DNA of 64,000 nt from Escherichia coli (GTDB taxonomy: Bacteria > Pseudomonadota > Gammaproteobacteria > Enterobacterales > Enterobacteriaceae), in assembly GCF_003991155.1 (NCBI RefSeq), contig NZ_CP031293.1; one strand, given 5' to 3'. Of the stretch, positions 13,530 through 61,946 are shown piece after piece. Position 1 is the first letter of the stretch. The number at the start of each line of letters is the position of its first letter. Made by a program: the position numbers and the translations under genes. The notes under the pieces are model-generated. The model was not told the origin of the DNA and did no database searches. It saw only the letters and a list, made by a program, of their open reading frames with translations.

Positions 13530-14813
13530 ATGGCTGATACAAAAGCAAAACTCACCCTCAACGGGGACACAGCTGTTGAACTGGATGTGCTGAAAGGCAC
13601 GCTGGGTCAAGATGTTATTGATATCCGTACTCTCGGTTCAAAAGGTGTGTTCACCTTTGACCCAGGCTTCACTTCAACCGCATCCTGCGAATCTAAAATT
13701 ACTTTTATTGATGGTGATGAAGGTATTTTGCTGCACCGCGGTTTCCCGATCGATCAGCTGGCGACCGATTCTAACTACCTGGAAGTTTGTTACATCCTGC
13801 TGAATGGTGAAAAACCAACTCAGGAACAGTATGACGAATTTAAAACTACGGTGACCCGTCATACCATGATCCACGAGCAGATTACCCGTCTGTTCCATGC
13901 TTTCCGTCGCGACTCGCATCCAATGGCAGTCATGTGTGGTATTACCGGCGCGCTGGCGGCGTTCTATCACGACTCGCTGGATGTTAACAATCCTCGTCAT
14001 CGTGAAATTGCCGCGTTCCGCCTGCTGTCGAAAATGCCGACCATGGCCGCGATGTGTTACAAGTATTCCATTGGTCAGCCATTCGTTTACCCGCGCAACG
14101 ATCTCTCCTATGCCGGTAACTTCCTGAATATGATGTTCTCCACGCCGTGCGAACCGTATGAAGTTAATCCGATTCTGGAACGTGCTATGGACCGTATTCT
14201 GATCCTGCACGCTGACCATGAACAGAACGCCTCTACCTCCACCGTGCGTACCGCTGGCTCTTCGGGGGCGAACCCGTTTGCCTGTATCGCAGCAGGTATT
14301 GCTTCACTGTGGGGACCTGCGCACGGTGGTGCTAACGAAGCGGCGCTGAAAATGCTGGAAGAAATCAGTTCCGTTAAACACATTCCGGAATTTGTTCGTC
14401 GTGCGAAAGACAAAAATGACTCTTTCCGCCTGATGGGCTTCGGCCACCGCGTGTACAAAAATTACGACCCGCGCGCCACCGTAATGCGTGAAACCTGCCA
14501 TGAAGTTCTGAAAGAGCTGGGCACCAAAGATGACCTGCTGGAAGTGGCTATGGAGCTGGAAAACATCGCGCTGAACGACCCGTACTTTATCGAGAAAAAA
14601 CTGTACCCGAACGTCGATTTCTACTCTGGTATCATCCTGAAAGCGATGGGTATTCCGTCTTCTATGTTCACCGTGATCTTCGCGATGGCGCGTACCGTTG
14701 GCTGGATCGCCCACTGGAGCGAAATGCACAGTGACGGTATGAAGATTGCCCGTCCGCGTCAGCTTTACACCGGCTACGCGCAGCGTGATTTTAAGTCGGA
14801 TATTAAGAAGTAA
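13530..14813 (+). CDS. gltA: Citrate synthase
   Basis: 427-aa [42 protein letters not shown]... Confidence 0.97.
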
Positions 14814-14826
14814 AAATGACACCGAC

Positions 14827-14856
14827 AAAACCCTGCGTGTTCACGCAGGGTTTTTA
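14827..14856 (+). terminator. gltA intrinsic terminator (stem CCCTGCGTG/CACGCAGGG followed by TTTTT); probably bidirectional
   Basis: Hairpin and T-run read from the sequence; an A-run precedes the stem; the dctM stop is 4 nt beyond. Confidence 0.7.
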
Positions 14857-14859
14857 GTT

Positions 14860-16170
14860 CTACACCAACAGCAAAGATATTGCCGGGATATAGGTAATAA
14901 CCAACAGCAGTAAAATAAGACTAACCAGTAGTGGCACCGCTTCTCGCATAAATTGCCCGACAGAAACCTGCACGGTATTACATACCAGCAGCATCACCGT
15001 TCCGACAGGCGGTGATAACGTTCCTAACGATAAGTTGAGGATCATGATGATGCCAAAATGCACCGGATCAATGCCAAAATGAGCCACCACAGGTTTAAGT
15101 AATGGAACTAATATCAGCAGGATGGCACTACCTTCAAGAAACATGCCAAGCACCAGCAGCAATAGATTGATAATCAATAAAAAGACGTATTTATTATCAG
15201 TCAGAGATGTCACAAACTCCGCAACCGTGATACCTGCCCGCTCAAGGGAAAATATCCAGCCCAGCGCGGCACTCGCCATAATGATTAACATGACCGATGC
15301 CGTCGAACGCGCCGTCTCTGAGAGTGCTGTAAATACATGGCTGATTTTCAGTTCGCGATAAATTACAAAACCAATAAACATCACCAATAATACTGCTACG
15401 GCTCCAGCTTCCGTTGGCGTAAAGATATTTGCCCGAATACCACCGATAACCGCAACAATTAAGAACAGTGCTGGCCAGGCCTGCACCAGCGCCACTGACA
15501 CTTCTTTCGGTTTTGGCCAGTGTTCGCTGGAAGGTTTTAAACCGCGCCGAATAGCTACCAGCCATACAGTGACAATCAACATGGCGGAACACAGCAGACC
15601 GGGCAGGATCCCGGCCATAAACATGGAGCCGATGGAGACATCCGCCACCAGTCCGTAAAGGATCAGTGCAATACCCGGTGGAATAATTGGTGTAATCAGC
15701 GAACCACTTGCCGTTATCGCCGCCGCAAAGCCACGGGAATAACCTTTCTGTTCCATTTCCGGCACCATCATGCGCGATAACATCGCAGCATCCGCCAGGT
15801 TTGAGGCGCTAACGCCGCCCATCATGGTACTGACCAGAATATTAGCCCCACCCAGACCACCGCGCATTCTGCCAATCAACACGTTGGCAATTTGCAAAAT
15901 ACGCGCGGCAATACCGGTATAGCTCATTAACGTGCCTAATAAGATAAAAAATGGAATAGCTAACAGCGAAGGGGTTTGCGTCGTGGCAATCAAACGCTGA
16001 ATTGCTACCATTAACGGCACATTTGAATAGCAAAGGAAGTAGGTCAGAATGCCGCAAAACATCGCCAGCCATACCGGCATATTGATAAATAAACAGATGA
16101 ACATAAGCGGAATGATCATTAGCCAGTTATCCAGCCAGCTTCCCGCCAGTAATTCACTCAATGCTGTCAT
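14860..16170 (-). CDS. TRAP transporter large permease (DctM family)
   Basis: 436-aa polytopic membrane ORF; start overlaps the dctQ stop by 1 nt. Confidence 0.85.
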   Translation of the reverse strand: MTALSELLAGSWLDNWLMIIPLMFICLFINMPVWLAMFCGILTYFLCYSNVPLMVAIQRLIATTQTPSLLAIPFFILLGTLMSYTGIAARILQIANVLIGRMRGGLGGANILVSTMMGGVSASNLADAAMLSRMMVPEMEQKGYSRGFAAAITASGSLITPIIPPGIALILYGLVADVSIGSMFMAGILPGLLCSAMLIVTVWLVAIRRGLKPSSEHWPKPKEVSVALVQAWPALFLIVAVIGGIRANIFTPTEAGAVAVLLVMFIGFVIYRELKISHVFTALSETARSTASVMLIIMASAALGWIFSLERAGITVAEFVTSLTDNKYVFLLIINLLLLVLGMFLEGSAILLILVPLLKPVVAHFGIDPVHFGIIMILNLSLGTLSPPVGTVMLLVCNTVQVSVGQFMREAVPLLVSLILLLLVITYIPAISLLLV

Positions 16171-16631
16171 TATTCACCTTCCTTGCGTGGCGTTTTCTTG
16201 ATCAGGTGTAAGGCAGTAAAACAGGCGATACCGATTGCACCAACCGTGACCGCAATATCGATCCAAAACCAGGATATTTTTAATATTTGCGTGGTTTTAA
16301 ATGCTGTTCCGGCAGCTAATTTCCATGCTGACCAAGCCATCACACTCAGTAAAACAATAGATATCAGAGAGACAAATAACGTTAAAACACGTTGCACGCG
16401 TGGTGTCAGTGCATCAGCTAAAAATGGAATCGACAAATGGGTATTATCCCGCTCGGCAACGACCGCACCAAACATGACTACCCAAATCATTAATAAACCG
16501 GAAACCTCTTCTGTCCACTGTAATGGCATATGAAAACAGTAACGCATTATTACCGCAGCAATGGTCATGATTACCAATATAAAGAGCGTTAATACCGCAG
16601 CAACTTCAATCATTTTCCCTAAAAGACGCAT
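16170..16631 (-). CDS. TRAP transporter small permease (DctQ family)
   Basis: About 153 aa with 4 predicted TM segments; start chosen at the ATG (MRLLGKMIEV...) with AGAGG RBS rather than the upstream GTG. Confidence 0.8.
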   Translation of the reverse strand: MRLLGKMIEVAAVLTLFILVIMTIAAVIMRYCFHMPLQWTEEVSGLLMIWVVMFGAVVAERDNTHLSIPFLADALTPRVQRVLTLFVSLISIVLLSVMAWSAWKLAAGTAFKTTQILKISWFWIDIAVTVGAIGIACFTALHLIKKTPRKEGE

Positions 16632-16650
16632 AAACACCTCTGCTCTTAAC

Positions 16651-16672
16651 GGTCGGTGCCGAAACACCGACC
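16651..16672 (-). other. Intercistronic hairpin between the TRAP binding-protein and permease genes (GGTCGGTG..CACCGACC)
   Basis: 8-bp perfect inverted repeat with 6-nt loop, read from the sequence. Confidence 0.4.
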
Positions 16673-16690
16673 AGTCCTTATGCCATGAAG

Positions 16691-17659
16691 TTATTTCAGC
16701 TGTTGCTGAATAGTGTCATACAAACCAGGGGTCCATTCCGGGAATTGTTGATAGACTTTTAAGGCTTTTTCTTTGAAAGGGGCGACGTCAGGATAGATAA
16801 TTTCCACGCCCTGCTCCTGCATGGTTTTCAACATTGTCGCATCCTGCTCAGTGGTAATTTTCTGGCTATATAAACCAGCTTCATACGCTGTCTGGTGAAT
16901 AATATCTAACTGCGCAGGTGTCAGGGTACTGAAAAACGCTTCACCACCCAACCATAATGATGTATTGGTCAGATAGTTCACCATTGACAGATATTTCGCC
17001 TGCTCATGCAGTTTTTGCCCATACAGAACAGAAACCGGGTTTTCCACACCATCGATCATCCCCTGCGTCAGCGCCGGATAAACGTCTCCCAGCGGCATTG
17101 GCGTTGGGGTTGCGCCCATTGCTTCAATGGCTTTAATCTGCATAACGTTATTCGGCACGCGGATCTTCATCCCTTTCAGGTCTTCAGGTGTACGAATCGG
17201 TTTTTTAGCAATGATCTGCCTGGTACCGTACAGATAGTTGCTCATGACAATATGCACACCTTTTTCCCGTAGTTTCTGTTCTTTTTGTTTAAACCAGTCA
17301 CTGGCATAAATCGCAAACAGTTTCTGCGGATCTTCGGTTAAATAAGGCCCAAACAATATTCCCAGGTCTGCATCGTAGTCAGTTAAAAATCCCACATCAC
17401 TGATGGTGATAATATTCATCCCCATCAACGCTTGTTCAGTAATATCTTGTTTAGAACCTAACTGTGAACTTGGGTAAAGTTCGAAAACAATATCTCCATT
17501 GCTTTTTTTCTTCACAAGTTCTGCCCAGTGCTTCACTACTGTATCCGCTGGCTCGCCGGGGTTACTTTCATAGGCGATTTTGATAGTTACCGGTGCGGCA
17601 TTCAGCATCGGACTAAATAAAGCGAAAAGAAATAAAAGTGGTGTCAGTAATTTTTTCAT
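16691..17659 (-). CDS. TRAP transporter periplasmic solute-binding protein (DctP family)
   Basis: 322 aa; signal peptide MKKLLTPLLFLFALFSPMLNA; conserved KIRVP region typical of carboxylate-binding DctP proteins. Confidence 0.85.
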   Translation of the reverse strand: MKKLLTPLLFLFALFSPMLNAAPVTIKIAYESNPGEPADTVVKHWAELVKKKSNGDIVFELYPSSQLGSKQDITEQALMGMNIITISDVGFLTDYDADLGILFGPYLTEDPQKLFAIYASDWFKQKEQKLREKGVHIVMSNYLYGTRQIIAKKPIRTPEDLKGMKIRVPNNVMQIKAIEAMGATPTPMPLGDVYPALTQGMIDGVENPVSVLYGQKLHEQAKYLSMVNYLTNTSLWLGGEAFFSTLTPAQLDIIHQTAYEAGLYSQKITTEQDATMLKTMQEQGVEIIYPDVAPFKEKALKVYQQFPEWTPGLYDTIQQQLK

Positions 17660-17686
17660 TATTATTACCTGTAAGAGCTTTATCGA

Positions 17687-18883
17687 TTAACGGGGATCTG
17701 CCCGACAGACTGCACTTTTGCTGTAATCAAATGCTTTATACGTTAAAACAAACTCCTGATGTTCCAGTCGTTCTGCGGCACAATATTGACCGTTGGCGAC
17801 ATGTTCAATCACCTGCATAATATCGTCTGCAATATCGTCGAGCGTTGCGCCTTCGCTAATTACACGACCGGCATTAACGTCCATATCGTCAGATAAATGC
17901 TCCCACGTCTGCGGGTTATTACACACTTTAATAATAGGAGCGATCACTGAACCAATAACTGAACCGCGACCTGTGGTAAATAACACCATATGACAGCCAG
18001 AGGCGATAAGTTCCAGTGCTTCTGAGGAATCGTTAATATTCGGATACCCAAAACGAGGTTCACCATCAGGCACCACGTCCATCAACCAAAGCCCAGGAAA
18101 GGGCGTTTGTTGCGTCGGCAAAATAACGCCAGCAATCAGCGCATCGCCCGACTTGGTATAAGCCCCAAGGGATTTTTCTTCCTGAGTGGTTAAGCCGCCT
18201 TCAGCATTACCATTAGAAAAACTCCCCAGCCCCATCAAACTGTAATAACGTTCGGCTTTTGCCATTGCCACTTCGATGGCATCACGTGCCTGCGAACTAG
18301 CCGCGCGCGACATCATATGCTGCTCACAACCAAGCAACTCACCGCTTTCTTCAAAAATACAGGTAGCCCCTTTCTCCAGCAGTTGGTCAAAGGCACGTCC
18401 TACTGCCGGGTTACCCGTGATACCACTGGTGCCATCGGAGCCACCGCAGATAGTACCAACCACCAGGTCGCTCCAGTTCAGGATACAACGCGGTGTATCC
18501 GCAAGCTGTTCCAGCATTTCAGCGACCAACTGCTTACCCAGAGTAATGGTGTTGGTCGTGCCTTTATTTTCCTGAATGACCAGCGTATGGCACGGTCGCC
18601 CACTTTCTCGTACTTCTTGCTCCAGCCGACGGCGATCAAAATTCTCGCACCCCAGCGAAATAATCAGTACACCACCTACGTTGCTATGAATCGCCAGATT
18701 TTTTACCAGACGATAGCCATAATCGCTGGGATAACAACCTGAAAAACCAAAATACTGCACGTCGTGACAAGGAAATCCTTCGGCAATCTTTTTAGCGACA
18801 TGGCTGGCACACTCCACCATAAAGATTACCTGCACAGTATTACGAATACCCGGTCGACCATTTTGCCGTACATAACCTTCCAT
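17687..18883 (-). CDS. UxaA-family (altronate/galactarate dehydratase-like) large subunit
   Basis: 398-aa ORF MEGYVRQNGRPGIRNTVQVIFMVECASHV... resembling the C-terminal catalytic part of UxaA/GarD; start overlaps the small-subunit stop (TAATG). Confidence 0.8.
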   Translation of the reverse strand: MEGYVRQNGRPGIRNTVQVIFMVECASHVAKKIAEGFPCHDVQYFGFSGCYPSDYGYRLVKNLAIHSNVGGVLIISLGCENFDRRRLEQEVRESGRPCHTLVIQENKGTTNTITLGKQLVAEMLEQLADTPRCILNWSDLVVGTICGGSDGTSGITGNPAVGRAFDQLLEKGATCIFEESGELLGCEQHMMSRAASSQARDAIEVAMAKAERYYSLMGLGSFSNGNAEGGLTTQEEKSLGAYTKSGDALIAGVILPTQQTPFPGLWLMDVVPDGEPRFGYPNINDSSEALELIASGCHMVLFTTGRGSVIGSVIAPIIKVCNNPQTWEHLSDDMDVNAGRVISEGATLDDIADDIMQVIEHVANGQYCAAERLEHQEFVLTYKAFDYSKSAVCRADPR

Positions 18884-19194
18884 TATGCTTTTTCCTCTGG
18901 CTGATAGCCGGCATCATCATGATGAAAAATGGCGATGGCATTGCTGGCAAGATTATGGGAATGCACATGTTCACCCATGGCAATATCGCGAGTGGCGTGT
19001 CCGATAATGGCGCCGTATTTCAGAATCGAATCACCATTGTTCAGCGCTTCGCAGGCCAGTTTGTGACCCAGGGTAACGGAACTACAGGCCACCATTTCCC
19101 CCTCATCCCACCAGACAATATCGCCACTGGCGATGTCATTCAGCGCGACTACACAGTTATCTTTGGCATGTAGCTTTAACGCACGTTTGCGCAT
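18883..19194 (-). CDS. SAF-domain small subunit of the split UxaA-type dehydratase
   Basis: About 103 aa from MRKRALKLHAKDNCVVALNDIASGDIV... with GGAGG RBS; corresponds to the N-terminal domain of single-chain UxaA. Confidence 0.7.
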   Translation of the reverse strand: MRKRALKLHAKDNCVVALNDIASGDIVWWDEGEMVACSSVTLGHKLACEALNNGDSILKYGAIIGHATRDIAMGEHVHSHNLASNAIAIFHHDDAGYQPEEKA

Positions 19195-19208
19195 AATTCC
19201 TCCGTACA

Positions 19209-19964
19209 TCAGAAGCCGATCAATGCGCCGCCATCCACCACCAGCACCTGACCACTGACAAATGCCGCTGCGTCTGAAGCCAGATAAACCGCAGCCCAAC
19301 CGATATCTTCCGGCTTGCCGAATTTTTTCATCGGTGTCCGCCCCAGGATTTTGTTACGGCGTTCGTCATCACCTTCAATGGCCTTACGCAACATTGGTGT
19401 ATCGATCCAGCCTGGCGCAATACCGTTGACGCGAATCCCATGAACGGCAAGCTCCGTGGTCATACCGCGAATCATGCCGAGATAGGCTGACTTCGCTGCG
19501 CTGTAGCCAGTAACCAGAGGCTGCCCAAGAAATGAGGTCATCGATGCAGTAAAAAGCACACAGCCTTGACCGCGTTGTTTCATATGCGGCACCAGCGCTT
19601 TGGTTAACGCAAATGCGCCGACTACGTGAACGTCGAGTACTGACTCAAAATCACTGACGCTCATCTCTTCAATCGGTTTTTTGCAGTGATTGCCTGCGTT
19701 ATTGACCAGGATATCGATAGCCCCGTGTTCGCTAATAAGCGCATCAACTTTTTCCTGCGCGGCTGCGGTATCCCCGACATCCATTTGTATCCAACTGGCC
19801 TGCGACCCCAATGTTCCGGCGGTCGCTTGCGCCAGCTCGCCGTTCAGGTCAGCAATAATGACCTTCGCCCCGCTGACTATCATGCATTTCGCCATTGCCA
19901 GCCCCAGCCCACTGGCTGCACCGGTGATCAACGCGGTTTTGTTATGTAAAGAAAAAGCATTCAT
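19209..19964 (-). CDS. Short-chain dehydrogenase/reductase (KduD/IdnO-like)
   Basis: 251 aa; TGAASGLG nucleotide-binding motif, IDILVNNAG, YSAAK catalytic motif; AAGGAG RBS. Confidence 0.85.
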   Translation of the reverse strand: MNAFSLHNKTALITGAASGLGLAMAKCMIVSGAKVIIADLNGELAQATAGTLGSQASWIQMDVGDTAAAQEKVDALISEHGAIDILVNNAGNHCKKPIEEMSVSDFESVLDVHVVGAFALTKALVPHMKQRGQGCVLFTASMTSFLGQPLVTGYSAAKSAYLGMIRGMTTELAVHGIRVNGIAPGWIDTPMLRKAIEGDDERRNKILGRTPMKKFGKPEDIGWAAVYLASDAAAFVSGQVLVVDGGALIGF

Positions 19965-19975
19965 GGTGTCGCTCC

Positions 19976-20989
19976 TTAAAGGTCAATGAGGATTTTGGTA
20001 TACGCGCCGGGATCACTTGCCCAGTCGCTAAAAGCATGATCAGCCTGTTCCAGCGGGTAGTGAGCACTCACCAGATTGCTGACCGGATAACGCCCGGACT
20101 CCATCAATGCCAGCACGGCACGAAAATCCGCCACGGTGGCATTGCGCGAACCACGGATATCCAGTTCTTTCATCAGGAACTGCGCACTCTGATAACTCAC
20201 TGGCTGTTTGGCGTAACCGACATAAACCACACGACCGCTAAACGCCACCAACCCTGTAGCCTGTTCAATGGTTTGTTGATTACCCACCGCTTCAATCACC
20301 ACTTCCGGGCCGCGACCGTCATTTAACAGCACCAGTTCTGCCGCCACGTCACATTGCTGCGAATTAAGAAAACGTTGCGCACCGCATTCCAGGGCAATGT
20401 TCTGCTTGCGATCATCAATATCGATAGCAATTACGCGCGCCCCCATGGCGGATGCCGCGGCGATAGCGCCAAGGCCAATTACCCCACAACCGATAACTGC
20501 GACCCATTCACCCACATTAATTTGCGCACGTCTGGCCGCATGTAGTCCCACGGCCAGCGGTTCTACCAGCGCTAACTCATCAACACTTAAGGCATTACAG
20601 ACAATGACTTTATGTGCAGGCATCGTCAGTTGTTGCGCCATCCCCCCCTGACGTTGCACACCAAGAGTTTGGTTGTTTTTACAGGCGTTAGGACGACCGC
20701 TCAGACAGGAGCTGCACACGCCACACTCAGTGCAAGGCAGAACGACCACCCGGTCACCTGGCTTGATCGCCCCTGCCATATCGCCAGTTGCCAGCACCGT
20801 GCCGCCAATTTCATGCCCCGGAATACAGGGATAATTAACCAGCGGATTCAGTCCCCGCCATGTATTGAGGTCAGAACCACACAGTCCGACACGCTCAACA
20901 TTGATTAGCACTTCTCCTTTACCGCAGACAGGTTCGGGGATATCAACAAATCGCGCCTGACTTCCCTGCTCAATGGTTAATGCCTTCAT
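19976..20989 (-). CDS. Zinc-dependent medium-chain dehydrogenase (IdnD / sorbitol dehydrogenase-like)
   Basis: 337 aa; GLCGSDL, GHEIGG, structural-zinc Cys cluster CTECGVCSSC, GCGVIGLG NAD fold; AAGGAGA RBS. Confidence 0.85.
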   Translation of the reverse strand: MKALTIEQGSQARFVDIPEPVCGKGEVLINVERVGLCGSDLNTWRGLNPLVNYPCIPGHEIGGTVLATGDMAGAIKPGDRVVVLPCTECGVCSSCLSGRPNACKNNQTLGVQRQGGMAQQLTMPAHKVIVCNALSVDELALVEPLAVGLHAARRAQINVGEWVAVIGCGVIGLGAIAAASAMGARVIAIDIDDRKQNIALECGAQRFLNSQQCDVAAELVLLNDGRGPEVVIEAVGNQQTIEQATGLVAFSGRVVYVGYAKQPVSYQSAQFLMKELDIRGSRNATVADFRAVLALMESGRYPVSNLVSAHYPLEQADHAFSDWASDPGAYTKILIDL

Positions 20990-21001
20990 TCATTGCTCTC
21001 C

Positions 21002-21688
21002 TTACATTACGCCGAAGGTTTCAAAGGCCTGTACCGTGCTCATGCCATCACTGATGGCTTTGCGCACTTCACTTTCAGTTGCCACTTTTTCCAGGGCCTG
21101 GGTAATAACTTCTTTCTCAACAACCTGGGGAATAATCAGTAATCCATCACGATCACCAAACACGATATCGCCCGGATTCACCCGCACGCCGTGAAATTCA
21201 ATAGGTACGCCGAAGTCGATGACCTTGCCGCGCGGACCTTGATCTTGTGCGTAAGTGCCATGACAAAAGGTGGGAAATTTCAATTCAAGAATTTCAGCAG
21301 AGTCACGGGCGTAACCATCGAGTACCGCACCTGCTGCTTTCAGATGCATGGCACGGGTAGACATCAACCCGCCCCACAAGGCATAGCGCAGAGAGCTGCC
21401 CGTAGTGATGTAAACATCGTTCTCTTTGAGGGCATCCAGCGCTTCAAACATGATGCCAAACGGTTTTTCGCCAATCGCCGTCTTACCCGACGTCGATTTG
21501 GTTTCGTAAACGTCCGACTCCAGCACCGGCATTGCCCGGCCTGCCACCACCGTATTCACATCCAGCGGCTTGATTGCCGGAGAAACAAACTGGTGCATAT
21601 AGCCCAGCGTGTCGAGAATATCGCCAACCACGGCGGTAAATAGCCGGGTTTTCATCAAAGCAAAAAGTTCGTTATCACTCTTCCACAT
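21002..21688 (-). CDS. RraA-like protein, putative class II 4-hydroxy-2-oxoacid aldolase
   Basis: About 228 aa from MWKSDNELFALMKTRLFTAVVGDILD... (RraA/MenG-like fold family); first gene of the operon. Confidence 0.75.
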   Translation of the reverse strand: MWKSDNELFALMKTRLFTAVVGDILDTLGYMHQFVSPAIKPLDVNTVVAGRAMPVLESDVYETKSTSGKTAIGEKPFGIMFEALDALKENDVYITTGSSLRYALWGGLMSTRAMHLKAAGAVLDGYARDSAEILELKFPTFCHGTYAQDQGPRGKVIDFGVPIEFHGVRVNPGDIVFGDRDGLLIIPQVVEKEVITQALEKVATESEVRKAISDGMSTVQAFETFGVM

Positions 21689-21694
21689 TATTTT

Positions 21695-21728
21695 CACCCT
21701 GTAAGCCTGTTTAACAGGTTTACAGGGT
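21695..21728. promoter_or_regulatory. Nested perfect palindrome (ACCCTGTAA-G-CCTGTT-T-AACAGG-T-TTACAGGGT) at the 5' end of the operon; candidate operator or RBS-occluding RNA hairpin
   Basis: Read from the sequence; lies 7 nt upstream of the RraA-like start codon and overlaps its Shine-Dalgarno region. Confidence 0.35.
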
Positions 21729-21951
21729 AAGGAGAAAAAGCGCACAATACTGCGAAGGGCGTCACGAAAAAGTTGTGTATTTACTATTTCTTCGCCACTC
21801 TTTCACACAATATGTCTTTGATTCGCACTGCATGGCGGGCGCACAGGCGCAGTAGTCTATTGATAATCAAGGGTTCTGGAGGAAAATATGAAGGATACAG
21901 TCCCGGTATTCTGGATTTTACCGACCAGGAAAAAGTACAACAGGAGTAAAA

Positions 21952-22665
21952 ATGAGTGAGAGTGCGTTATTGACCAGCGTAACGTTATCGTCACAGGTCA
22001 AAAATCATATTCTTAATCTGATCGCCGAACAAAAATTGACACCGGGGATGCCAGTTCCCAGTGAAATTCAGTTGATTCAGAAATTGGGCGTCAGTCGGGG
22101 TATTGTGCGTGAGGCCTATCGTTCACTTGCCGCCCTGGGGATTCTGGAAACGCACAGCGGTAAAGTGCCACGGATCAAAAAATTTGATGATGAAGTGCTG
22201 CGCGTGGTGTTTGGATTTGCCCTGGCGACCGAACAAGTAACAACAGAGCAAATTCTTCAAGTACGTCGCTGGCTAGAGTTGGGCGTTGTGGAAGCTGCTG
22301 CCCGTAATGGCGGAGAAGAAGATTTTGCTAACCTACGGGCTGAAATGGCAAAAATCCGCGAACAGTTCGATGATGTCGAAAGCTTTATCACCCATGACAT
22401 CCGCTTCCATCAGTTACTCGCCGTTGCCTCAAAAAATCCGCTTTTTATGATGTTATTGCAGGCATTACATCAGCAATTGCGGCAATCCATCCAGGAGGGA
22501 TTAAACGCCCAAAGCGATCAGAAAGAGTATGGCAATCACATCATCACACTACACCAGAAAATCTGCGACGCTGTGTGTGCCAGAGATGTCGAAACGGCGA
22601 CTCAAGCCATGAAATCACACTTCGACAGCCCGGTCAGTGCACTGATCAATAATTCCTCGCCATAA
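21952..22665 (+). CDS. GntR-family transcriptional regulator (FadR-type C-terminal domain)
   Basis: 237 aa; N-terminal winged HTH (EIQLIQKLGVSRGIVREAYRSL) followed by an all-helical domain; divergent from the catabolic operon. Confidence 0.85.
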   Translation: MSESALLTSVTLSSQVKNHILNLIAEQKLTPGMPVPSEIQLIQKLGVSRGIVREAYRSLAALGILETHSGKVPRIKKFDDEVLRVVFGFALATEQVTTEQILQVRRWLELGVVEAAARNGGEEDFANLRAEMAKIREQFDDVESFITHDIRFHQLLAVASKNPLFMMLLQALHQQLRQSIQEGLNAQSDQKEYGNHIITLHQKICDAVCARDVETATQAMKSHFDSPVSALINNSSP

Positions 22666-29554: not shown

Positions 29555-29588
29555 GCCTGATAAGACGCTCGCTGCGTTTTATCAGGCT
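29555..29588. repeat. REP-like palindromic element between convergent dtpD and phr
   Basis: GCCTGATAAGACGC...GCGTTTTATCAGGC inverted repeat. Confidence 0.45.
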
Positions 29589-31544: not shown

Positions 31545-31584
31545 CCGAAAAAAGAAAACCGCCAGCGTTTCCACCGGCGGTTTT
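31545..31584 (-). terminator. Intrinsic terminator downstream of ybfA
   Basis: Stem AAAACCGCC/GGCGGTTTT followed by a U-run on the minus strand. Confidence 0.55.
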
Positions 31585-31606
31585 CTTTAAACGTCATGTT
31601 TGGCAA

Positions 31607-44012: not shown

Positions 44013-44046
44013 AAAAAAGGGCGATCTTCTGACCGCCCTTTTTCTT
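44013..44046. terminator. Bidirectional intrinsic terminator between convergent potE and pgm
   Basis: A-run, stem AAGGGCG/CGCCCTT, T-run. Confidence 0.65.
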
Positions 44047-48321: not shown

Positions 48322-48360
48322 TGTGATGCGGCGTAGACTCATGTCTACGCCGTATTAATA

Positions 48361-53026: not shown

Positions 53027-53228
53027 CGTGGATTCCTCAAAGCGTAAACAACGTATAACGGCGTATGATCTTATAAGCGGGACAGGCTGACAACTGTTAG
53101 TTAGTGAAAATCGAAAATCTCACTGAGATTATGGGGATGATTGATGAAAAAAAAAGCGGCAGAGAAGATCTCCACCGCTTGTCATTGTTGGATGCGACGC
53201 TCAAGCGTCGCATCAGGCATAAAGAAGA

Positions 53229-61467: not shown

Positions 61468-61475
61468 GAAATGCG

Positions 61476-61505
61476 AAACAGCCCCGGTAAAATCCGGGGC
61501 TGTTT
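61476..61505. terminator. Bidirectional terminator between asnB and the convergent 145-aa gene
   Basis: Stem AACAGCCCCGG/CCGGGGCTGTT. Confidence 0.55.
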
Positions 61506-61508
61506 CAG

Positions 61509-61946
61509 TTATTGAGGTGCTTGTTGATTCTGATATGCAGTAAGGAAATGTTCCGGGTTTGCCACATCACTGTTTGACAACTCATTACTGTAGGCCACCG
61601 ACCAGGTCGCCTGCTCATCCGGAATATGCAGGCTGCCATTCCCCTCTTTCAGGCGTAATAACTCAAAAGATTTGCCCTTAATTACGGCGGTATAGGATTT
61701 TTCACCTTCCTGTAATGCTTTCACTTTACAGCGAAAAATCTGGCCATCGATGTCATTATCAACATGCGATACCTGAATGAGGGCTTCATTAGAGGCTTTC
61801 GGCCCTATCCGCATCATCCACACCACAGCGCCTTCCTGCCCACGATAGCCAAAAACATATTTACCGATTTCCGGTTTGACCGTATCGGCAAACGCAGATT
61901 GCATAAGTAATAACGCACCCATCAGCGCCGTCATAAAACGCAGCAT
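61509..61946 (-). CDS. Hypothetical secreted protein (145 aa, cleavable signal peptide)
   Basis: ATG with GAGGGAA RBS; N-terminus MLRFMTALMGALLLMQSAFA-DTVKPE...; no family recognised. Confidence 0.65.
   Translation of the reverse strand: MLRFMTALMGALLLMQSAFADTVKPEIGKYVFGYRGQEGAVVWMMRIGPKASNEALIQVSHVDNDIDGQIFRCKVKALQEGEKSYTAVIKGKSFELLRLKEGNGSLHIPDEQATWSVAYSNELSNSDVANPEHFLTAYQNQQAPQ

Follow-up and report, generated by a model that had tools for sequence, protein, structure and literature searches.

Intercistronic hairpins of the malE-malF type, which protect the 3' end of the upstream message in operons whose parts decay at different rates, were reportedly described by Newbury et al. in 1987. 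The 3'-protective hairpins mapped by term-seq in E. coli are stable, with energies of -15 to -31 kcal/mol, and carry no U-tracts (Dar & Sorek 2018, PMC5927463). In five ABC transporter operons, those for maltose, polyamine, arginine, histidine and methionine, the stabilised gene was always the one coding for the binding protein, and mglB-mglA is listed as a further such pair in the S3 table of the same work (PMC5927463).

We examined a stretch of 64,000 nucleotides of Escherichia coli DNA, referred to below as the window, which carries an operon for a TRAP transporter with a hairpin between its dctP and dctQ genes. A stem-loop between these two genes was reportedly noted in early TRAP papers, and Forward et al. 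(1997) are said to have found one in the dctPQM operon of Rhodobacter capsulatus; other TRAP operons of this kind would offer the same junction in the same transporter family, with unrelated sequences. Our full-text literature search found no open-access paper describing a dctP-dctQ hairpin. As in the malE-malF, hisJ-hisQ and artI-type cases, the stem-loop described here lies 3' of a binding-protein gene and 5' of the genes for the membrane subunits, and it also shares with the malE-malF type the lack of a U-tract, comparable stability (about -15 to -20 kcal/mol), conservation of the structure in relatives and the logic of an excess of binding protein. It differs in serving a TRAP (secondary) transporter instead of an ABC system, and the mapped examples of the malE-malF type have term-seq 3' ends and measured half-lives. 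The malE and hisJ elements also lie in REP/BIME repeats, while the dctP-dctQ hairpin is single-copy: each of 660 E. coli genomes has it at exactly one place (blastn E <= 10), the window holds one copy, and a dispersed REP/BIME repeat was therefore rejected.

The TRAP operon and its dctP-dctQ junction

The accessory operon lies on the minus strand and, together with its regulator gene, makes up an island at about 14860-22665 between gltA and abrB (Table 1). According to the RefSeq annotation of an identical locus, its genes code in order for an RraA-family protein, a Zn-alcohol dehydrogenase, an SDR, two UxaA-family subunits, DctP, DctQ and DctM, and the gene for a FadR/GntR-family regulator lies divergently upstream. 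The Pfam scores of DctP, DctQ and DctM are all well above the cut-offs and their genes are adjacent, as in a DctPQM-type TRAP transporter operon. The island was present in 660 of 5426 complete E. coli genomes, ST131 and IAI39 included, and is about 98% identical throughout among the strains. Since the closest relatives of DctP outside Escherichia (72-76% identity) belong to Citrobacter, Edaphovirga and Alphaproteobacteria such as Rhodospirillum and Azospirillum, the distribution suggests that the island, consisting of this 8-gene sugar-acid-type catabolic/TRAP operon and its regulator, was acquired horizontally. The annotation of E. coli AR_0058 (locus L004, 620-1061) treats dctQ as a pseudogene with a frameshift, next to an intact dctP and an intact hairpin.

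Table 1. Features of the dctPQM region, in positions of the window
Feature	Position	Strand	Remarks
gltA	13530-14813	+	convergent with dctM
Bidirectional intrinsic terminator, operon end and convergent gltA	14827-14854	.	AAAA-CCCUGCGUG-AAC-CACGCAGGG-UUUU
dctM, large membrane subunit	14860-16170	-	Pfam DctM PF06808, E = 9.1e-109
dctQ, small membrane subunit	16170-16631	-	ATG 16631; Pfam DctQ PF04290, E = 1.6e-30
dctP-dctQ intercistronic spacer, 59 nt	16632-16690	-	between dctP stop and dctQ ATG
dctQ Shine-Dalgarno GAGG	16637-16640	-	5 nt 5' of ATG 16631, 10 nt 3' of hairpin
Hairpin core	16651-16672	-	5' arm GGUCGGUG 16672-16665; 3' arm CACCGACC 16658-16651
Hairpin loop UUCG	16663-16660	-	closed by U.G pair 16664/16659 (RNAfold)
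dctP, substrate-binding protein	16691-17659	-	stop TAA 16693-16691; Pfam DctP PF03480, E = 6.8e-65; RefSeq

The start of dctQ is given by RefSeq for the identical locus and by tblastn alignments, which for most orthologues start at residue 1; a GTG at 16667, which the ORF listing offered as the start and which falls inside the hairpin, goes against both the annotation and the alignments and was discarded. The stop codon of dctQ overlaps the start of dctM (ATGA) in E. coli, and 46 of the 58 orthologous loci show the same overlap. The complex of DctQ and DctM has a 1:1 composition (PMC5812351), which fits a translational coupling of dctQM and a separate handling of dctP.

The first-pass annotation had placed an 8-bp GC-rich stem in a 59-nt spacer between the dctP stop and the dctQ start. 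The gene coordinates agree exactly with that spacer, and the arms are GGTCGGTG and CACCGACC, with six of the eight pairs G-C. Read as RNA, the spacer is CUUCAUGGCAUAAGGACU-GGUCGGUG-UUUCGG-CACCGACC-GUUAAGAGCAGAGGUGUUU, and the hairpin is laid out as GGUCGGUG(U)-UUCG-(G)CACCGACC, that is, eight Watson-Crick pairs and the closing U.G, to which RNAfold adds a weak extension of three pairs. The nine-pair stem starts 18 nt 3' of the dctP stop, and its 3' edge is 19 nt from the dctQ ATG. The Rfam 15 covariance models gave no match at E <= 1 on either strand of the region 14000-22000.

The hairpin has a predicted energy of -15.0 kcal/mol alone and of -17.0 to -17.7 kcal/mol in a 45-nt segment ending 3-5 nt past the stem, and the whole 59-nt spacer folds at -21.0 kcal/mol (z = -2.61), a value equalled by 5 of 200 shuffles (p ~0.03). 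The window holds a single occurrence of the exact palindrome pattern, where 0.02 would be expected. It also holds 31 hairpins with at least 9 pairs, at least 6 of them G-C, and a loop of 3-8 nt, where random sequence would give about 10, and because the class is this common, one such hairpin is no proof of function. Several others, at 29555-29587, 31551-31588, 44013-44044, 48324-48357, 53154-53214 and 61474-61507, resemble terminators or REP-like palindromes. Considered alone, then, the E. coli hairpin is only mildly improbable, and it is the comparative data that carry the case. A neutral palindrome that arose by chance and has no function in E. coli would agree with the modest statistics from E. 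coli alone, and about a third of the window's hairpins of this class are expected by chance; the conservation of the spacer within the species, described next, does not speak against it either.

Conservation of the hairpin across orthologous operons

The spacer was identical in five sampled E. coli genomes, and its 46-nt core was identical in 659 of the 660 genomes that carry the island, an invariance that carries no information, since strains share about 98% identity over the entire island. We therefore rely on a DctP-based scan with one genome per species, which returned 60 loci at 63-98% protein identity and allowed the dctP-dctQ spacer to be delimited in 58 operons of Gamma-, Alpha- and Betaproteobacteria, among them Escherichia albertii, E. 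whittamii, Citrobacter, Edaphovirga, Affinibrenneria, Azospirillum, Paracoccus, Brucella/Ochrobactrum, Cohaesibacter, Lampropedia and others. The spacer measured 50-175 nt in every one of these 58 orthologues. A contiguous stem of at least 8 bp was found in 48 of them, with a median of 12, and in 45 the stem was longer than in 95% of dinucleotide shuffles; the median folding z-score was -3.1, and z-scores were weak in GC-rich genomes. In 2136 windows of the same length taken from flanking coding DNA of the same loci, 13% reached 8 bp (Mann-Whitney p ~1e-25).

To remove redundancy, the spacers were clustered at 75% identity, giving 30 clusters. Contiguous stems of at least 8 bp were present in 25 of these, and in 29 when interrupted stems are counted, the four additional clusters (Citrobacter, L014, L028 and L053/L055) having strong interrupted or compound stems. 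Affinibrenneria (L012) was the sole cluster among the 30 with no convincing hairpin between dctP and dctQ. The stem sequences are unrelated between clusters: the Escherichia arm GGUCGGUG is replaced by CCACGGUGC in Edaphovirga, CCGGGCGGGGC in Azospirillum, GCCAUGUCGCGGC in Brucella and GCCCGCCGC in Paracoccus. UNCG tetraloops were found in four independent clusters. The spacers of L053 and L055 (3976-4057) are an identical 82 nt with a second small hairpin, GGGTCGTGACCC, inside the loop of a Brucella-type hairpin; one of the two loci is from Brucella pseudogrignonensis and the other from 'MAG: Xylophilus sp.', a contig that may be mis-binned.

Covariation was seen in the 19 spacers from Brucella, Ochrobactrum and Falsochrobactrum, for which RNAalifold independently predicted a 13-bp helix with 98.3% of cells paired and four pairs altered on both sides. 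The covariation observed in this group was matched by none of 500 column shuffles, slid registers paired at 22-55%, and G.U pairs were common in the stems. Two sequences of the Azospirillum group differ at paired positions: in one, both sides of a G-C pair have changed to give A-U, and in the other C-G has become U.G. Substitutions within Escherichia are few, and they lie beyond the stem, change the loop from UUCG to UACG (both UNCG-type) or, in E. albertii, turn the outermost G-C pair into G.U. As judged from these comparisons, the persistence of structure through turnover of sequence shows that the hairpin at the dctP-dctQ junction is under selection, and a functionless chance palindrome becomes very unlikely when hairpins occupy the same position in 29 of 30 independent clusters, with covariation.

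Folding of the two strands was also compared. The Escherichia spacer folds at -21.0 kcal/mol in the sense and -15.3 kcal/mol in the antisense direction, and the sense strand had the advantage in 41 of 59 pooled loci (p = 5e-4). By cluster, however, the count was 18 against 12 and no longer significant (p = 0.22), so that strand asymmetry was not robust enough to be kept as proof of action at the RNA level.

Beyond the orthologues, we sampled plasmids and chromids for genes of more distant TRAP binding proteins (26-34% identity). Eight of these genes stand in dctP-to-dctQ order. A strong hairpin was present at the junction in six of these eight paralogous operons, from Azospirillum, Pararhizobium, Pseudomonas, Maritalea, Paracoccus and Agrobacterium; it was missing from the other two, one with a 25-nt spacer and one, from Thermus, whose genes overlap. 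On these sequences the hairpin looks common in proteobacterial TRAP operons and not universal, and since Affinibrenneria and two paralogues lack it, it is dispensable.

Candidate mechanisms

The first-pass annotation had offered two mechanisms, a partial terminator and an RNA-stability element. In the first, the hairpin would work as a leaky intrinsic terminator, or attenuator, at which some RNA polymerases stop and fewer transcripts reach dctQM. The hairpin does resemble a Rho-independent terminator in its GC-rich stem, short tight loop and place at the end of a cistron, and the stem is followed by UU. It is unlike one in lying within an operon, directly ahead of a functional dctQ ribosome-binding site, and in lacking a U-tract: only 2 of the first 8 nt past the stem (tail GUUAAGAG) are U, the terminator consensus scan left the hairpin unflagged, and membership of the Rho-independent class was rejected for want of the U run. 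A terminator with the full anatomy stands at the end of the same operon, where the 46-nt gap between gltA and dctM holds the perfect palindrome AAAACCCTGCGTGTTCACGCAGGGTTTT with A-tract and U-tract flanks; it served as the positive control within the window, and the dctP-dctQ tails are poorer in T than it is. They are also poorer than the operon-end hairpins of their own loci, since the number of T in a 12-nt window had a median of 7 for hairpins after dctM and 4 for those between dctP and dctQ (same loci, paired Wilcoxon p = 2.5e-4). Only 7% of the orthologous hairpins have at least 5 T in the 8 nt past the stem, and 93% have fewer. T-rich tails at L064 (6 of 8), L019, L025 and L026 (5 of 8 each) and L060 (CGTTTTTGG) count on the side of attenuation, and in these lineages some attenuation or termination may indeed take place; an attenuator and an exonuclease barrier can, moreover, act together. 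For the E. coli hairpin we consider leaky termination possible, if rather unlikely, and the partial terminator is thus the part of the earlier proposal that fared poorly.

The position of the hairpin relative to dctQ is constrained. Its 3' edge lies at least 16 nt from the dctQ start in all 24 hairpin-bearing clusters, where uniform placement predicts 9.4 of the 24 to be closer than that (p ~3e-6), and in 21 of 25 clusters it lies 16-28 nt 5' of the start. A Shine-Dalgarno sequence can still be recognised in front of most dctQ genes, and the dctQ ribosome-binding site is left free by the hairpin. A role as an anti-Shine-Dalgarno element was rejected, the accessibility of the ribosome-binding site in 26 representative spacers being 0.49 against 0.48 in controls with a shuffled 5' flank (p = 0.62). 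In the minimum-energy fold, a CUUC just past the dctP stop pairs with the GAGG of dctQ, and the Brucella-group spacers have an analogous outer helix. An internal promoter for dctQM was likewise rejected, as the spacer has no promoter-like site and the total for the region is at chance level.

The constrained placement could mean that the hairpin serves dctQM, either as a 5' cap against RNase E, as in papBA, or by insulating the dctQ ribosome-binding site from pairing with the upstream coding sequence. Keeping the ribosome-binding site clear, however, explains the constraint equally well. The papBA-type 5'-protective hairpin is similarly intercistronic and sets differential stability within an operon, but it stabilises the downstream gene, while here the stoichiometric logic, like the ABC precedents, points to the upstream gene; stabilisation of the membrane subunits would run contrary to that logic and to the ABC operons of PMC5927463. 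We hold a role on the dctQM side to be distinctly improbable.

An action at the DNA level was considered as well, in which the palindrome would be bound by the FadR/GntR-family regulator of the operon as an internal operator or roadblock. FadR-type operators have TGGTC/GACCA cores, which were counted in support of this reading. The arms do form a perfect 8-bp inverted repeat, and the 9-mer of the 5' arm, CTGGTCGGT, recurs at 21920-21928 in the divergent promoter region beside the regulator gene. The 9-mer has four copies in the window against 0.36 expected from shuffles; the other two are at 164-172 and 61597-61605, and, as it spells the common codons CTG-GTC-GGT, its repetition may be chance. 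The half-sites are 14 nt apart and not adjacent, the G.U pairs common in the stems speak against a DNA site, and the sequence of the hairpin is wholly different among orthologous operons in which the structure persists. An operator at the junction seems to us most improbable.

A separate palindrome with 15-bp arms (ACCCTGTAAGCCTGTTTAACAGGTTTACAGGGT) lies at 21696-21728. It stops 8 nt short of the start codon (21688, minus strand) of the RraA-family gene, the first in the operon, and overlaps its likely Shine-Dalgarno; it could be an operator for the FadR/GntR-family regulator or a 5'-UTR hairpin.

The reading we favour, with a probability of roughly 0.55, is that the dctP-dctQ hairpin is a 3' exonuclease barrier of the malE-malF type that stabilises the upstream mRNA, dctP included, relative to dctQM. 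The junction presents the sequence-level features of that class, namely a stable stem-loop just 3' of dctP, no U-tract and a structure present in orthologues, and its energy of -15 to -17.7 kcal/mol is within the -15 to -31 kcal/mol range of the term-seq-mapped protective hairpins, at the weak end. According to this model, the whole operon would be transcribed as a single mRNA and dctQ translated from its own free ribosome-binding site. RNase E would cut the poorly protected dctQM part, and the 3'-to-5' exonucleases PNPase and RNase II would degrade the message back to the hairpin and stall there, so that the upstream part ending with dctP would outlive dctQM. Like malE-malF and hisJ-hisQ, the operon would consequently yield more of the periplasmic binding protein than of the membrane complex, in which Q and M stand 1:1. 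We infer that RNA 3' ends form at the hairpin, that the two parts differ in half-life and that the protein ratio results from this. Since dctP is the sixth of the eight genes, such a barrier would stabilise the upstream enzyme genes too and would not act on dctP specifically.

The stability element of the first-pass annotation is thus the mechanism that would fit better, given the missing U-tract, and the purpose suggested there, an excess of binding protein over the membrane subunits, agrees with a junction hairpin under selection and with the precedent of the ABC operons (PMC5927463), the function itself being something that we infer. In our ranking the exonuclease barrier is the most likely mechanism, ahead of leaky termination, which is followed by a role on the dctQM side; a DNA operator and chance share the last place. 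A wider proposal would make the hairpin a family-wide module of proteobacterial TRAP operons, fixed in position 5-25 nt past the stop of dctP and 16-28 nt ahead of the start of dctQ. It would have a dual role, blocking exonucleases for dctP and supplying a processed 5' end or standby site for dctQM. One processing step dependent on RNase E would then fix the ratio of P to QM, and growth rate or an sRNA, for instance, could regulate that step. We find this extended version unlikely.

Meaning for TRAP transporters

No concept is changed by these results, and the hairpin would join a known class of protective hairpins. From the sequences compared here, its role is probably an ordinary one, to let the cell produce the binding protein in larger amounts than the membrane subunits. 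For the annotation of operons, this means that a U-less hairpin past a binding-protein gene is not to be taken as an operon boundary, and in heterologous expression of TRAP transporters, deletion of the spacer would change the ratio of P to QM. If the exonuclease-barrier reading is correct, TRAP transporters would share with ABC importers a post-transcriptional device for an excess of binding protein, one that would have been kept by selection in three proteobacterial classes despite complete turnover of its sequence.
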